In this document: positions 7,601-12,318 of the stretch, in pieces | Position numbering within the stretch: the stretch's first letter is position 1 | Layout: each line of letters opens with the position of its first letter | Assembly: GCA_028819215.1 (NCBI GenBank) | Contig: JAPPMG010000066.1 | Coordinates: 21,752 to 85,751, forward strand | Source of the DNA: Bryobacterales bacterium | Lineage (GTDB): Bacteria > Acidobacteriota > Terriglobia > Bryobacterales > UBA6623 | Length of the DNA stretch: 64,000 bases | Reading direction: 5' to 3' | Notes under the pieces: model-generated | Database searches by the model: none | Told to the model about the DNA's origin: nothing | What the model saw: the letters and a program-made list of their open reading frames with translations, nothing else | Position numbers and translations under genes: made by a program

Positions 7601-8567
7601 AGCCTCCGCCAGCGATGTCCGCCTGAACTATCCGCCCAGTGTCGCCAGCGTGATCGACGGGGATTTCGTCTGGGCGGGGGCGGGCGGGCGGAGCATCCTC
7701 AACGGCAACATCGTGATCACACGCATGTCGACGGCCAGCGACCTGTCGTTCGCGGACCTGTTCTCGAGTCTGCAAGTGAGCGGGGGCAGCCTCGACTCGA
7801 GCCCACTGCTGGAGGGCCTGCAGCTCAACGTGCACGTAGGAGCCGTCCAGCAACTGCCGATAGAGACATCGCTTGTGCGCGACGTGCAGGCGGATTTTGA
7901 CCTGGACTTTGTGGGAACGCTGGCCAATCCGTCCCTCGTGGGCGCGATCCAGATCGTACAGGGCGAGTTGCGGATGCTCGGCACGCACTACCAGATCAAT
8001 CGGGGGGAGATCCGCTTCATCGACGCCCTGCAAGCGGAGCCCGTCCTCAATGTCGAGTTGGAGACACGCATCCGAGATGTTGATCTTGCCCTGGTGCTGT
8101 CGGGGCCGGGCCGAAATCTGGATTTGAGCTACCGCTCCGATCCGCCGCTGCCGTTCCACGACCTGGTAGACCTGGTTGCCGTTGGCAAGGAGCCGACGAT
8201 CGATCCGAGCATCGCATCACGGCGGCGAATCGAACAGCAATCGCTGGTGCAGACTGGCGCCGACAACATCCTCAGCCAAGCAATCGCCCGCCCGGTTTCG
8301 AAGCGCCTACAGCGCTTCTTCGGCGTCAGCCGGCTCAAGGTGGACCCGCAAGTCGGCGGTCTGGAGTCCAACCCGACCGCCCGCCTGTCGACCGAACAGC
8401 AGATCGCCGACGATATCACGCTGATCTACAGCTACGATCTCTCGTCGGCCCAGCAGCAGGCCATCCGCTTGGAGTGGAATCCCGACCGCAACTGGTCGTT
8501 CATCATGACGCGGGACCAGAACGGCCTGCTGGGTTCCGACGTGCTGTACAAGCTGCGGCTGAGATAG
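4611..8567 (+). CDS. tamB: Translocation/assembly module TamB (AsmA-like) protein
   Basis: 1318 aa with an N-terminal TM anchor, a long Gly-rich beta-taco-like body and a C-terminal DUF490-like region (YRSDPPL...). Confidence 0.85.
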   Translation: MIKAALTSILRHRIALAATAFIGLGWGGFEAAIRTDWFLDTLRHRAIAKLEQSLGETVSIDEIRLGDSRLAFEIKGLELRASDDAAAAPLLSVPHAAATLGWRSLLGGVTVLESLSLRDPVFNVTVAEDGPAILGQASQESLISGLAVRRFELDGGQLVWNGRPYDLEFRGTGLRVETRFDPRSQRHTIDAELRDPQVGSADSLALIGSTVSMSAVADTTGVEITSAEVHGQDLSAQLRGTIRGRQQLSARCVFSLQSTIAPLADLIGYAGLGLLGSLAASGELEWDGASGAVAYSGGFAASSVGSSALELDLSVAGRFFGNESSVELADLEGAALGGGLQAQATIDAPWLEPRLTSNGSVSGIALANVATAMGSTVPAWSGSVDAEFDLSGTAPHDLLANVRLQVAPTEEPSTLPVGGDASLHFSSATGRVSVDGFSLATPNIRASGSGGFAVAGGGELLVEVEIDSKQALERILAVLRIVSQLPPTAPDGRYSYRGSLDWGPEQIASATLSGDFSIEEFTLGGQRWDHLALQGVLFPDRIDVMEGRMVDGAGDLRFSGSLPLQEHGALDLAISATAIDARKLALASGFALPIEGLLAMEASLSGTQSEPVAASSVIVDMPTFFGERFDGLEAEVYYDPNGFELRNASLERGQSRLTVTASTSGRTEEARFSMESNSWPLEEFTWARALAPGVTGALRFDLRAAGPPTLRGSLGSLELSGTWEVSDLRRRGLELGNWSGSVSSALDAENIQLDWQADVFDGTFRGDATLQRQLGPSSYNGSVQFDSLSTQRLAEFLDLPSGTPLGTLMGSADFGGVVGSAGTFVMDGTIERAEVSLPSPDGEPHVISNVFPLRWGIRDGDLRFDSMALTGPDTDFRIDGAVGLEGERSLDVSIDGDVDLSLLDGFADGIQTVGTTRIGVRIRGTLDDPSLEGSVELVDASISSVGLPLQLSNLNGAIAFQGGQGRISRLTATSGGGTVQFSGVTSFRDSEFEYRLQASASDVRLNYPPSVASVIDGDFVWAGAGGRSILNGNIVITRMSTASDLSFADLFSSLQVSGGSLDSSPLLEGLQLNVHVGAVQQLPIETSLVRDVQADFDLDFVGTLANPSLVGAIQIVQGELRMLGTHYQINRGEIRFIDALQAEPVLNVELETRIRDVDLALVLSGPGRNLDLSYRSDPPLPFHDLVDLVAVGKEPTIDPSIASRRRIEQQSLVQTGADNILSQAIARPVSKRLQRFFGVSRLKVDPQVGGLESNPTARLSTEQQIADDITLIYSYDLSSAQQQAIRLEWNPDRNWSFIMTRDQNGLLGSDVLYKLRLR

Positions 8568-8591
8568 GCCTCGGGCGTCTCGCCGGCCGCA

Positions 8592-9674
8592 CTACGCCAG
8601 CTGCAGCGCGGGCTGGGGGGCAAGGCCGAATCCGTCGAATTGCTTGCGCCTCAGGCGGGGGTAGGCCGCGGCGGCGATCATGGCGGCATTGTCAGTTGCC
8701 AGCGCGAGCGTCGGGAAATAGCACGGCAGCGGCAACGACTCGAACGACGCGCGCAAGCCCGAATTGGCCGCGACGCCGCCCGCGACGATGATCGACTCGA
8801 CTTGCTCCTCTTCCGAAGCTCGCACCGCTCGCCTGAGCAGCTCGGAGACGGCGCGCCGCTGAAACGAAGCGATCAGATCGAGGCAGCCTTGGCTCGATGA
8901 GTCCAGCAGGGCCTGGAAGGTGGGGCGCCCGTTGTTCCACAGGGCGCGTCGCGACTCGATCTCCTCGCCGAGGCTGGCGCCTTGAACATAGTGGCGGATC
9001 GCCGTCTTCAACCCGCTAAAGCTCATGTCGAGCGGATTGCCCTTCATGTGCACGACTGGCAGGGGAACCCCTCCGGGGTCGCCGTGCGGTGCCAGCCGGT
9101 CAAGAATCGGCCCGCCCGGGTAGCCGAATCCGAGCAGCTTCGCCACCTTGTCGTAGGCCTCTCCGGCCGCATCGTCGCGCGTGCGCCCCAAGAGCCGGTA
9201 CGCGTAGGCATCCCGGTCACGCCGGTGGACGATGAACATATGGCTGTGGCCGCCGCTCACCACCAAAGCCAGGGCTGGAAACTCAACCTCCCCTCCGGCC
9301 GCTCGACGCTCGAGCACGACGGAATGAATATGGCCCTCGATGTGGTTTACGCCGATCAACGGCACCCCTAGGGATGCCGCCAGCCCTTTGGCGTAGGTGA
9401 CGCCGACCAGCAGCGCCCCGATCAGCCCCGGACCGTAGGTCACCCCGATGGCATCGACGTCTTGGTATCCGATCTCGGCGCGCGCCAGCGCTTCCCGAAC
9501 GACGGGCACGATGGCACGCAGGTGCTCGCGGGAGGCCAGTTCCGGCACCACGCCGCCATACGCGGCATGGACATCGAACTGCGAAGAAATCACATTGGAC
9601 AGCAGACGGTCCCCATCGGCGACCACGGCAGCCGCGGTCTCGTCGCAGGAAGTCTCGATCCCAAGCAGGTTCAT
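8592..9674 (-). CDS. tsaD: tRNA N6-threonylcarbamoyladenosine biosynthesis protein TsaD
   Basis: [57 protein letters not shown]. Confidence 0.97.
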
Positions 9675-9686
9675 CACATACAGGAA

Positions 9687-9718
9687 TGCCCCCGCGAGCG
9701 CTCGCGCCCGCGAGGGCA
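9687..9718 (-). promoter_or_regulatory. 14-bp GC-rich hairpin just upstream of the tsaD start (weak terminator or RBS sequesterer)
   Basis: Minus strand TGCCCTCGCGGGCG-CGAG-CGCTCGCGGGGGCA pairs fully with two G-U pairs. Followed by TTCCTG and then the start codon. Confidence 0.5.
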
Positions 9719-9844
9719 AGGTCGGCGCTGTCGCGCCGGTTTAGATTGCACTGGCAGCACCCTTGGCGCGGCGAGTTGCCGGTCCACGGTCACTACGGCC
9801 CCGCACTGGCAAGAACGGGGCATCGGAACGTCCGAGCAGTCGCG

Positions 9845-9901
9845 CTAACTCTCGGCCACCTCTCCGTCCAGATGAATACTACCAGCAGTACTGTCGTTCA
9901 T
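9845..9901 (-). CDS. Putative 18-aa small ORF / leader peptide MNDSTAGSIHLDGEVAES
   Basis: Perfect Shine-Dalgarno AAAGGAGGTGA (9921-9911) 9 nt before the ATG, downstream of a sigma70-like promoter. Confidence 0.5.
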   Translation of the reverse strand: MNDSTAGSIHLDGEVAES

Positions 9902-9939
9902 GTCTCTGAATCACCTCCTTTGGCCAGTTTGGTAGCCCC

Positions 9940-9969
9940 ATGCTAGCGCAGGGGCGAAATCTCAGTCAA
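9940..9969 (-). promoter_or_regulatory. Sigma70-like promoter driving the sORF/tsaD leader
   Basis: Minus strand TTGACT-N18-TAGCAT. Confidence 0.55.
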
Positions 9970-10057
9970 TCCCCACAACACGACCGAGATTTGAGCGCGG
10001 GAATTCGGTAAACCGCGGCTGCGGCTATGTTTGGCCTCCCGTGCCCCGCGGCGAGCC

Positions 10058-10606
10058 TCACTGCGGGGAGGGGGGCCGCATGAGCCGGTACTCGCCGGTC
10101 ATCGCGGGGTCCTCGAACTCTAGGAACGTGTCGCCATCGGCCCCGCGGTACCGCCACACCTCGAACGGGTGGCTCGCGGTGAGCACGCCGCCTTCGCGGG
10201 ACGGTCGCCGATACTGGCCGCCCGACGGGTGCGACTCGATCTCGTCCGGCGGCCCGCGCGTGATATAGGTCCGGCCGCGATCGGTCTTCCAGCCGGGAAT
10301 CCGCACGCTGAACCGATCGTTGGCCCAGGCGATGCGGCGGTAATGCTCTTCCTTGTATTCGTTCGCGGTGGAGTCCGGAGTCTGGTCGCGCCGCATCCAG
10401 AACGACTCGATGAAGTCCTCGCGCTGCGCGTCCGTTGTCAACCGCACGAACGCCTCGCGCTCTTCGCTCGTGATGATGTAGGGGACATCCTCGTCGAGCC
10501 AGCGCTCGAAGGGCCCTGGAAGCTCCTCCGCGGTCTGTGCCGCAAGTGGCCCCACCAAGCCGGCGGCAGCCAGCGCCGCAATCCAGATCGCAAATCCGCT
10601 AAGCAT
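10058..10606 (-). CDS. GWxTD domain-containing protein (secreted)
   Basis: Signal peptide, WLDEDVPYII, FW..RD, EHYRRIAWAN..F, GWKTDRGRTYI. Confidence 0.9.
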   Translation of the reverse strand: MLSGFAIWIAALAAAGLVGPLAAQTAEELPGPFERWLDEDVPYIITSEEREAFVRLTTDAQREDFIESFWMRRDQTPDSTANEYKEEHYRRIAWANDRFSVRIPGWKTDRGRTYITRGPPDEIESHPSGGQYRRPSREGGVLTASHPFEVWRYRGADGDTFLEFEDPAMTGEYRLMRPPSPQ

Positions 10607-10874
10607 CGCTCCTCCTTCCTCTCCGGTGCCGTGCGCAATCGAGAGGGCTCCCCGGCCTGCCCGACCGCTTCAGGCTCTTGCGCCTTCGGGCGGCCTCTCC
10701 AAGTCTGACTCTAGGGTCACCGGCGCGGATGGTCAAGTCAGAGATCGGGAGCAACACGCACACCGGTGCAGCGGCCTCGCGCCGCGGCGACGCACGCTTG
10801 GCGGGCCGGGCCGGAAGGCAGGCCAGGCCCGTGTCGATAGAATGAAAATTGCCGCCATCGTGCGGACGAGACCC

Positions 10875-11795
10875 ATGTACGAAGTGATTGTGATCGGCTC
10901 CGGCTGCGCCGGGAGCACCGCTGCCATCTATGCGGCCCGTGCAAGCTTGAAGCCCCTGGTGATCGAGGGCCTGGAAGCGGGCGGCCAGCTGACGCTGACC
11001 ACGGACGTGGAGAACTATCCCGGGTTCCCGGAAGGCATCATGGGACCTGATCTGGTCGATCGCATGAAGCAGCAAGCCCAGCGCTTCGGCGCCACCTACA
11101 GGCACGGCGCCGTAACGCGAGCGGATCTGTCCTCCCGCCCGTTCAAGCTCTGGATCGGCGACGAGCGGCTCGAGGCGCGGACCCTCATCGTCGCTTCCGG
11201 CGCGTCCGCCCGCTGGCTGGGGCTGCCATCGGAACAGGCCCTTGTTGGCCATGGCGTCAGCTCATGCGCGACGTGCGACGGGTTCTTCTTCCGCGGACAG
11301 CCGGTGACCGTCATTGGCGGCGGCGACAGTGCCATGGAAGAGGCGCTGTTCCTGACTAAGTTCGCCACCGAGGTGACCATCGTGCACCGCCGCGAGGAGT
11401 TCCGGGCCTCGAAAATCATGCTGGATCGCGCACGGTCCAACGAGAAGATCAACTGGATCACCAACGCGACGGTCACGGAGGTCGCCGATCCGGCGGCCCA
11501 GGCCGTGACGGGCCTGAGACTGCGCAGCACTGTCAACGGCAAGGAATGGGACCACAAGACCAGCGCGCTGTTCCTTGCCATCGGGCACGTGCCCAACACA
11601 GACATCTTCAAGGGCCAGCTCGACCTTGACGAACAGGGCTACATCGTGTCCCACGGCGGCGCGCGGACGAACATCCCGGGCGTCTTCCACGCCGGTGACG
11701 TCGAGGACAGAGTCTACCGGCAAGCCGTCACGGCGGCCGGCGCGGGCTGCAAAGCCGCCATCGAGGCGGAGCGACTGCTGGAAGCCGAGGGCTAG
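10875..11795 (+). CDS. trxB: Thioredoxin-disulfide reductase
   Basis: GxGxxG, GGQL..TT.VENYPGF, CATCDG active site, GGGDSAMEEA, YRQAVTAAG. Confidence 0.97.
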   Translation: MYEVIVIGSGCAGSTAAIYAARASLKPLVIEGLEAGGQLTLTTDVENYPGFPEGIMGPDLVDRMKQQAQRFGATYRHGAVTRADLSSRPFKLWIGDERLEARTLIVASGASARWLGLPSEQALVGHGVSSCATCDGFFFRGQPVTVIGGGDSAMEEALFLTKFATEVTIVHRREEFRASKIMLDRARSNEKINWITNATVTEVADPAAQAVTGLRLRSTVNGKEWDHKTSALFLAIGHVPNTDIFKGQLDLDEQGYIVSHGGARTNIPGVFHAGDVEDRVYRQAVTAAGAGCKAAIEAERLLEAEG

Positions 11796-11817
11796 CCCGC
11801 GCGCCCAGGCGTCAGGC

Positions 11818-12318
11818 TCAGGCGGACTGCGGGAAGAGGTCCAATTGGCCGGGCAGCGTCTTGGACACCTTGGGTCGGCGGCGGAAGGCGTCCGGCTTGC
11901 CGATGACCCCCATCACGACGCACATCTGCACTGCGGCTTGCGGCACGAACACGCGCCAGGCGAGCCCCCTGGAGTCGGGCGGCGTCAACGTGACGCCCGG
12001 GGCGCCGAGCACGCGCAGGTCGTTGGGGATCACGCCCTCTAACTCCCCGCCGTCCAAGAAACGCAAGCGAATCCAAAGCCCGCCGAGCTTCGGCCGGGAG
12101 ATGAACTCCTTGCGCTGGCCGCGCTCGGGATCCTTGTCGAACTCCCGCACAAAGTACACGGCCCGCACCTGGTCGTACGGGATGACCGCCGGCTCGGCCG
12201 TGCGCGTGATCAGCTCGATCCCGGCGCTGCTCAGATACTGCTGAGGGTCCACCCAGCCCTCGACCCTGTCGAGCCCGAAGCGTCGCACGCAGACCTTCTT
12301 GGCTGTGGAATTCAACAA
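11818..12318 (-). CDS. Conserved hypothetical protein (DUF6982-like, two duplicated beta modules)
   Basis: KKVCVRRF...VRAVYFVREF / GLWIRLRFLDG..LEGVIPND...RVFVP. Start is probably the TTG after GGGG, because the upstream ATG lies inside the -10 box. Confidence 0.6.
   Translation of the reverse strand: MLNSTAKKVCVRRFGLDRVEGWVDPQQYLSSAGIELITRTAEPAVIPYDQVRAVYFVREFDKDPERGQRKEFISRPKLGGLWIRLRFLDGGELEGVIPNDLRVLGAPGVTLTPPDSRGLAWRVFVPQAAVQMCVVMGVIGKPDAFRRRPKVSKTLPGQLDLFPQSA

Follow-up and report, generated by a model that had tools for sequence, protein, structure and literature searches.

A structured RNA with a maximal Shine-Dalgarno sequence and a micro-ORF upstream of tsaD in Bryobacterales, a relative of Ms_IGR-5 by architecture

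The element upstream of tsaD

We analyzed a stretch of 64,000 nucleotides (nt) from the metagenome-assembled genome (MAG) of a Bryobacterales bacterium (GCA_028819215.1, contig JAPPMG010000066.1), referred to below as the window, and within it an element on the minus strand at 9674-9969, directly upstream of tsaD. The spacer in front of tsaD is 383 nt long, and the preceding gene ends at 10058. A preliminary description of this DNA had proposed a leader peptide and attenuator that senses the tRNA modification t6A (N6-threonylcarbamoyladenosine) and feeds back on tsaD, with an independent small protein or small RNA (sRNA) as its fallback. The fallback was judged the better reading: with moderate confidence, we interpret the element as a self-contained gene for a structured and translated RNA of ~250 nt, an acidobacterial form of Ms_IGR-5, with tsaD fed here by read-through of the terminator. 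The features of the element are given below from the promoter to tsaD, with the families of the order labelled f1, f2, and f3 (f2 being the sister family).

9964..9969, minus strand: -35 box TTGACT, from the promoter scan, with TTGAC at equal distance in f1 and f3
9940..9945, minus strand: -10 box TAGCAT, from the promoter scan (N18 spacing to the -35 box) and the f1/f3 comparison
9923..9928, minus strand: 5' strand of a pseudoknot, ACUGGC, whose partner is the P4 loop GCCAGU, with A-U pairs replaced by G-C, and G-C by A-U, in different clades
9906..9921, minus strand: SD1, a Shine-Dalgarno (SD) sequence, AAAGGAGGUGAUUCAG, complementary to the 16S rRNA 3' tail over 12 contiguous pairs, or 16 with one U.G
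9845..9901, minus strand: micro-ORF (open reading frame) of 18 codons, MNDSTAGSIHLDGEVAES, with ATG at 9901 and TAG at 9845
9878..9885, minus strand: 5' strand of helix P2, CUGGUAGU, codons 6-8, pairing with 9751-9758, with compensatory change in 4 of 7 pairs
9853..9862, minus strand: SD2 and 5' strand of helix P3, GAGGUGGCCG, codons 14-17, pairing with 9770-9781, with 89.7% of cells paired and 3 pairs compensatory
9798..9821, minus strand: P4 hairpin with the conserved loop GCCAGU at 9805-9810, which is the pseudoknot 3' strand; the stem covaries UA/GC/CG and CG/GC
9770..9781, minus strand: 3' strand of P3, CGGCAACUCGCC, anti-SD-like, from helix counts in the alignment
9751..9758, minus strand: 3' strand of P2, GCUGCCAG, from RNAalifold and helix counts
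9724..9737, minus strand: small hairpin P6 (GGCGCG ACAG CGCC), predicted by RNAalifold within the genus; the wider set could not be aligned here
9687..9718, minus strand: GC-rich terminator-type hairpin of 14 base pairs (bp), represented in the alignment by 12 pairs, 10 of them compensatory, with 93.4% of cells paired
9675..9686, minus strand: pyrimidine-rich tail from the hairpin to the tsaD start, U-poor here and U-rich in relatives (CUUCCUUUUU, GUUUUCC)
8592..9674, minus strand: tsaD (Pfam PF00814, E 3.5e-82), single copy in each genome searched

The promoter TTGACT-N18-TAGCAT, the 18-codon ORF with 6 of its first 9 codons of the form ANN (ATG included), a 9-bp repeat, and tsaD as the downstream gene had all been named in the preliminary description, and each was recovered. 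The promoter (9969-9940), of sigma-70 type, was the only promoter-like site in 9400-10300, where 50 shuffles gave a mean of 0.1. Sequence conservation starts at the -35 box, with none upstream of it, and in 20 aligned loci of the genus it continues as far as tsaD. The distance from the -10 box, together with the point where the Rfam model of Ms_IGR-5 begins, places the predicted RNA start at about 9933. The repeat, TGCCAGTGC, occurs twice, in 9798-9821 (P4) and in 9744-9758 (P2 3' strand), because the P4 loop and the P2 3' strand both complement 5' strands that bear CUGG. The ORF stop lies ~130 nt before the terminal hairpin, and the hairpin ends 9-12 nt before the tsaD start (GTG 9677 or ATG 9674). 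The hairpin was identified in practically all copies of the element, and the tails of relatives are richer in U. The full RNA of 266 nt has a predicted folding energy of -120.8 kcal/mol (z -2.55), beating 197 of 200 shuffles. Upstream of the element, on the same strand, are a gene encoding a GWxTD-domain protein (10058-10606, PF20094) and an ORF of 217 residues belonging to no Pfam family (10599-11252).

The SD, which reads AAAGGAGGTGAT(TCAG) as DNA at 9921-9906 and is also written AAAGGAGGTGATTCAG, had been described as perfect in a window where most genes lack one, and the remark on most genes agrees with a rough genome-wide count. The MAG (5.86 Mb) has no assembled 16S rRNA gene, and the 16S 3' end in 5 complete genomes of the genus, found via RF00177, is ...GCGGCUGGAUCACCUCCUUU. 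SD1 in most copies is AAGGAGGUGAUCCAG, which matches the 16S tail perfectly over 15 nt, or over 17 nt with one G.U in the GGAAGG forms, and its A to G and C to U variants preserve wobble pairing. A contiguous complement of the 16S tail of at least 12 nt was identified at only 2 sites in the 5.86-Mb genome, with SD1 the second-longest. SD usage is otherwise low, with a 5-mer SD at -4..-18 in 8.3% of 4551 long ORFs, compared with 2.7% in a control zone, a crude count with uncertain start codons. The other site, in the MAG's own contig C32 (C32:164100-164165, at 164143; locus L128), carries a 14-nt complement within a hairpin loop. It was considered as a second locus of this kind and judged to be a chance occurrence, as its antisense strand is the start of an ORF (MADHLLWPWF...) and the site persists in no more than 5 of the 24 genus genomes, with decay in one of them, L134. 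A translational lock through pairing of SD1 with the tail before tsaD was likewise dropped, since only some members of the genus have the UUCC tail.

Covarying helices and the conserved micro-ORF

Structure statistics were obtained from an alignment of 41 diverse copies (A2), with helices defined by hand and with RNAalifold and with 500 shuffles and slid partners as nulls for pairing. We identified 5 covarying helices in the ~250-nt RNA, comprising the pseudoknot between the 5' ACUGG and the P4 loop CCAGU, P2, P3, P4, and the terminal hairpin. The cells of these helices were paired in 87.5-89.6%, compared with 78-80% in shuffles (0 of 500 reaching the observed value) and 36-53% with slid partners, and 21-24 pairs had compensatory changes on both sides. 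P3 is formed by GGUGGCCG of the last codons with 9770-9781, and its 3' strand in other clades is CGGCCACCUC or GACCACCUCUU, resembling the 16S tail. The downstream strands of P2 and P3 pair with the ORF from roughly codon 6 up to its final codons; most of the ORF thus lies in long-range helices, and a translating ribosome must therefore melt them. The P4 loop was also considered as an anticodon-loop mimic for TsaD, a candidate that was dropped because loop length and the base after GU vary.

The micro-ORF was in frame in all 54 non-redundant copies collected, with lengths of 12-18 codons and every indel a multiple of 3. Within the genus it was intact in 20 of 20 aligned loci and always 18 codons long, with TAG, TAA, or TGA at one place. 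The distance from ATG to SD is constant, and an in-frame GAG GTG invariably precedes the stop by 9 nt. In the 30 distinct ORFs of 18 codons, Leu11 is preserved via CTG, TTA, CTT, and CTC, and Asp3, Gly13, and Glu17 change synonymously; the entropy of the 3 codon positions is 0.76, 0.72, and 1.01, so that third positions vary most. Codons 14 and 15 are GAG GTG in 28 of these 30 ORFs and GGG GTG in 2, never GAA or GTC, and with no synonymous change at GAG14 and GTG15 they are therefore constrained as nucleotides. The N-terminal half of the micro-ORF is free in length and sequence. Ribosome footprints have been described for the M. abscessus and M. smegmatis homologues of Ms_IGR-5, according to the parts of that report available to us (PMC4974804). 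These substitution and indel patterns argue that the micro-ORF is truly translated, and the conservation of SD, ORF, and hairpins in relatives, proposed as a check in the preliminary description, held across the 54 copies and the covarying helices, as well as in 22 of 24 genus genomes.

Distribution, relationship to Ms_IGR-5, and leader contigs

By BLASTN, the spacer was present in those 22 of 24 other genus genomes and in 0 of 16 genomes of the other genera of the order. At the level of the element, every f1 genus sampled carried it directly upstream of tsaD, as did 6 of 6 f3 loci with upstream DNA, and it was found in 0 of 14 tsaD upstream regions of f2. In one f3 locus (L087, G026:C260), the element and tsaD are separated by a gene pair that resembles hicA/hicB, as judged by eye from translations. 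A wider survey used the pattern SD1 plus GRGGTG-N9-stop, with the reversed pattern as a control. It identified a single element per genome in 53 of the order's 62 sampled genomes (23 of 27 in f1, 26 of 27 in f2, and 3 of 7 in f3; reversed control 0), and it matched 20 of the 401 genomes sampled from the whole of Acidobacteriota (reversed control 4). Of the 20 loci of the phylum survey, only the window's own had tsaD downstream, and tsaD followed none of the copies outside f1 and f3.

The f2 element lies 163 kb (G027) or 226 kb (G040) from tsaD, or on a separate contig. In 17 of 26 f2 loci (L144, L145, and L158-L181), the L31-like gene rpmE (M.AGIHP..., the C+ form by its CxxC motifs) follows soon after the terminator, with a gap of 28-97 nt in 15 of those 17 loci, where the hairpin finder placed a hairpin before rpmE. 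With the A2 profile, the f2 copy L145 could be aligned across 170 positions (E 3e-18); pattern selection inflated the remaining E-values of this search. Unrelated genes flank the element in further acidobacterial families as well as in Nocardia and Streptomyces. Further, in 2 species of the window's genus, G012 (L014:38-1417) and G073 (C8 ~902.8-908.7 kb), sulfatase genes (PF00884) lie between the element and tsaD, at distances of 3.2 and 6 kb, and both elements are intact, with compensatory differences between them. The gap from hairpin to tsaD start was measurable in 41 tsaD-linked copies out of 44 examined (3 had no usable tsaD start) and was at most 30 nt in 31, 31-60 nt in 4, and longer in 6. 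A gap of at most 30 nt leaves no room for a separate tsaD promoter, so in most species read-through is needed. Adjacency to tsaD is probably a lineage-specific arrangement of the 2 families f1 and f3 and not the purpose of the RNA family.

The architecture of the element resembles that of Ms_IGR-5 (RF02471), which shares the 5' ACAC..AAGGAGGUGRUYC, a tiny ORF 5-8 nt further on, GAGGUG 9 nt before the stop, a CAGYCACC-type partner, and a final GC hairpin. Genuine RF02471 members from Nocardia (107.8 bits) and Streptomyces (75.5 bits) carry ACACAAGGAAGGAGGUGAUCC, 12-codon ORFs (MEIQRTREVAVS and MYEHRTSEVAAG) ending in EVAxx, GAGGUG-N9-stop, a CAGYCACC partner, and a terminal hairpin, with a 16S-tail complement of 13-17 nt and no co-directional gene behind them. 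The window copy, unlike Ms_IGR-5, belongs to another phylum, has a longer and AGU-rich ORF, abuts tsaD, and carries the extra helices P2 and the pseudoknot between 5' end and P4 loop as defined here; the Rfam consensus structure of Ms_IGR-5 has no annotated partner helix for GAGGUG such as we found.

Against the Rfam gathering score of 45 bits for RF02471, the distant acidobacterial copies L135, L143, and L137 scored 50.6 (above threshold), 42.6, and 28.1 bits, and 6 other loci had no RF02471 match. A profile built from 9 distant acidobacterial and 2 actinobacterial copies matched the window only at 9839-9921 (E 0.0012), its sole match in the whole genome. On architecture and this chain of similarity, the window element is best classed as a relative of Ms_IGR-5, not a member by curated score. 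Ms_IGR-5 has been reported to form an sRNA transcription unit of its own in S. avermitilis (PMC8780764) and as validated by RNA sequencing (RNA-seq) in S. lividans (PMC8079986), in the portions of both papers available to us.

Public RNA data contain sequences from the leader. In 17 RNA runs, 8-21% of sampled words from an 801-nt query were present, and 4 runs from 4 studies (sponge and marine metatranscriptomes) yielded leader contigs spanning 9723-9973 (X1), 9749-9968 (X2), 9746-9891, and 9734-9916. Three of the runs carry nothing but short contigs over the leader, and the run with the 9723-9973 contig has in addition a separate contig of 6.6 kb, derived from a relative and ending where tsaD starts. 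The hairpin region 9678-9722 was in no contig of the 4 runs, a gap that may be technical, since a public DNA assembly (L044) is broken at the same spot. Such leader-only contigs fit an abundant small RNA, although contigs cannot show transcript ends.

Interpretation and rival explanations

In the reading we favor, most transcripts probably stop at the terminal hairpin and accumulate as a small RNA, and the remaining read-through would supply tsaD mRNA. A 30S subunit caught by SD1 would translate the ORF and in doing so melt P2 and P3. With the stop codon in the A site, GAGGUG would lie 6 nt upstream of the P-site codon, which is the spacing between an SD and a start codon, and the anti-SD of the ribosome could then take GAGGUG over from the RNA's internal anti-SD-like strand. 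The RNA may thus alternate between a closed and a ribosome-opened form, and a hand-over of GAGGUG at the stop would account for the constancy of the 9-nt distance in both Acidobacteria and Actinobacteria.

Several observations weigh against this interpretation. The window copy had no RF02471 match at E up to 1, nor was there one at the locus in a whole-genome search at E up to 10, and the link to Ms_IGR-5 is transitive, running through copies picked by the SD1 plus SD2 pattern, a selection that inflates profile E-values. The 14-bp hairpin before tsaD, one of the features of the preliminary description, is present at 9687-9718 and covaries, but a simple terminator scan called 0 terminators in the window copy because the tail CAUUCCUGUAUGUG is U-poor, which suggests a weak terminator. 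A dedicated cis-regulator, too, would be expected to have its gene right behind the hairpin, as seen for tsaD in 31 of 41 copies, and both the ribosome-driven switch and the GAGGUG hand-over are drawn from geometry alone. Among the RNA contigs, X1 and X2 extend past the predicted RNA start (to 9973 and 9968, respectively), and the contigs cannot show transcript ends and may in part reflect DNA carry-over.

As a dedicated t6A sensor, the element would let ribosomes slow on ANN codons when t6A37 is lacking and so raise read-through into tsaD. The tRNA that reads AGU bears t6A. We compared the variable part of 46 distinct micro-ORFs with a background of 968,999 codons, and the ANN enrichment noted earlier was real, at 43% (210/485) in tsaD-linked ORFs compared with 18.4% in the background. 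It was equally high in copies with no link to tsaD (45%, 111/244, in f2 and 44%, 86/194, in distant copies), and is therefore an acidobacterial family trait and not a tsaD-specific sensor. Most of the excess is AGT, a codon rare in the genome (172 compared with 3.6 per 1000), with GGT and TGT contributing, and it amounts to an NGT periodicity (third-position T 56% compared with 12%) that partly overlaps the paired strand P2; the 2 actinobacterial ORFs examined have no AGU. A precedent for such sensing exists in a t6A derivative that tunes thr-leader attenuation, in the part of that work available to us (PMC4132733), and tsaD does abut the hairpin in most linked copies. Still, the element, a single-copy gene, sits away from tsaD in 26 of the 27 f2 genomes as well as in other phyla, and it stays intact when 3.2 and 6 kb from tsaD. 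With the micro-ORF masked in 3 ways, the terminator stem kept a probability of 0.95-1.0 in the 11 of 44 copies in which the stem was correctly picked, the script having chosen a long-range pair between SD1 and the pyrimidine tail in the others. When RNAs were cut before the terminator 3' strand, the 5' strand paired with varying partners, among them the SD1 region and the P4 3' strand, none of them conserved, and an alignment-wide helix scan gave no helix competing with the terminator; these folding tests assume equilibrium, and a kinetic antiterminator is beyond their reach. Our literature searches returned no tsaD leader and no t6A-dependent autoregulation. Taken together, feedback of t6A on tsaD, the central proposal of the preliminary description, appears very improbable. 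A more general attenuator, reading translation status through free 30S subunits or anti-SD tails and setting read-through into tsaD in f1 and f3 and into rpmE in f2, is an unlikely but more serious candidate. It would make sense of the maximal SD1 in a genome that uses few SDs, of the internal anti-SD-like strand competing for GAGGUG, and of 2 conserved neighbors that both serve translation (tsaD, and L31 in 17 of 26 f2 loci). The same folding results stand against it, in that the terminator stem, in the 11 usable copies, is unaffected by whether the ORF is masked or free and the partners of its 5' strand are not conserved in truncated folds; so do the 28-97 nt before rpmE, which leave space for a separate promoter, and the unrelated or opposite-strand neighbors of other lineages.

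The favored reading, a self-contained gene for a translated RNA, could be extended to a ribosome-engaging riboregulator in which the freed anti-SD mimic or the opened fold reports free ribosomes or anti-SD tails and is wired by read-through to tsaD in 2 families and to rpmE in a third, an extension we regard as unlikely in this specific form. If the product of a highly expressed gene were instead a micro-protein, an acidic peptide of 12-18 residues (...EVA[ED]x) with the RNA structure serving mRNA stability only, the selection on amino acids at Leu11 (4 codons), Asp3, Gly13, and Glu17 and the retention of the ORF across 2 phyla would be expected. That alternative is decidedly unlikely given the freely varying N-terminal half, the fixation of the most conserved residues, E and V, as nucleotides (GAG GTG) within a covarying helix, and a pseudoknot and 150 nt of structured 3' region that exceed the needs of an 18-codon mRNA. 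At the other extreme, an untranslated sRNA would carry the ORF as a by-product of structural constraints, in keeping with the overlap of most ORF positions with helices or SD-like motifs. The fixed distance of ATG from a maximal SD, indels that are all multiples of 3, a stop fixed in place while alternating between TAG, TAA, and TGA, and the footprints described for the actinobacterial homologues (PMC4974804, consulted in part) make this extremely improbable.

Rfam lists Ms_IGR-5 for Actinobacteria only, and relatives are now identified throughout one acidobacterial order and patchily across the phylum. The ribosome-directed features, namely SD1, the micro-ORF, the fixed GAGGUG, and the anti-SD mimic, were not found in the portions of the Ms_IGR-5 literature that we searched. 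A 2-phylum RNA of such design is a good candidate for a general translation-linked regulator, and it explains the long "empty" spacer before tsaD and rpmE in Bryobacterales. It also cautions that the neighbor gene of a conserved leader is not necessarily the leader's target.

Several known systems resemble the element in part. The attenuators trpL, hisL, thrL, and pheL share with it a promoter, a strong SD, a short leader ORF, a terminator-like hairpin, and a gene with no promoter of its own, whereas the element has no exclusive antiterminator that we could find and no run of codons for a single amino acid, and is not bound to one operon. Another parallel is rnTrpL/peTrpL of Sinorhizobium meliloti, whose terminated leader RNA contains a translated small ORF, persists as an sRNA, and can act apart from the downstream gene, according to the parts of the reports available to us (PMC6614838, PMC7298713), although its sequence and structure are unrelated. 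The alphaproteobacterial sRNA CC2171 (RF01867) has a consensus that opens with the same 17-nt SD (GAAAGGAGGUGAUCCAG), followed by GUG, a short open frame, and a terminator hairpin, the same build of maximal SD plus tiny ORF, but no GAGGUG-N9-stop. It was the only direct Rfam match of the window copy, through the SD string and at chance level (16.6 bits, E 0.93, and 24.5 bits for L154, against a threshold of 75 bits), so that a direct Rfam identity was rejected, and CC2171 is probably analogous rather than homologous. A tmRNA (transfer-messenger RNA) or 2-piece tmRNA was ruled out, with 0 tmRNA genes called by ARAGORN in 8000-12000 and no tmRNA match in Rfam. In one public DNA assembly (L044:486-913), the sequence breaks into poly-G/N exactly at the terminal hairpin, which seems to be hard to sequence.

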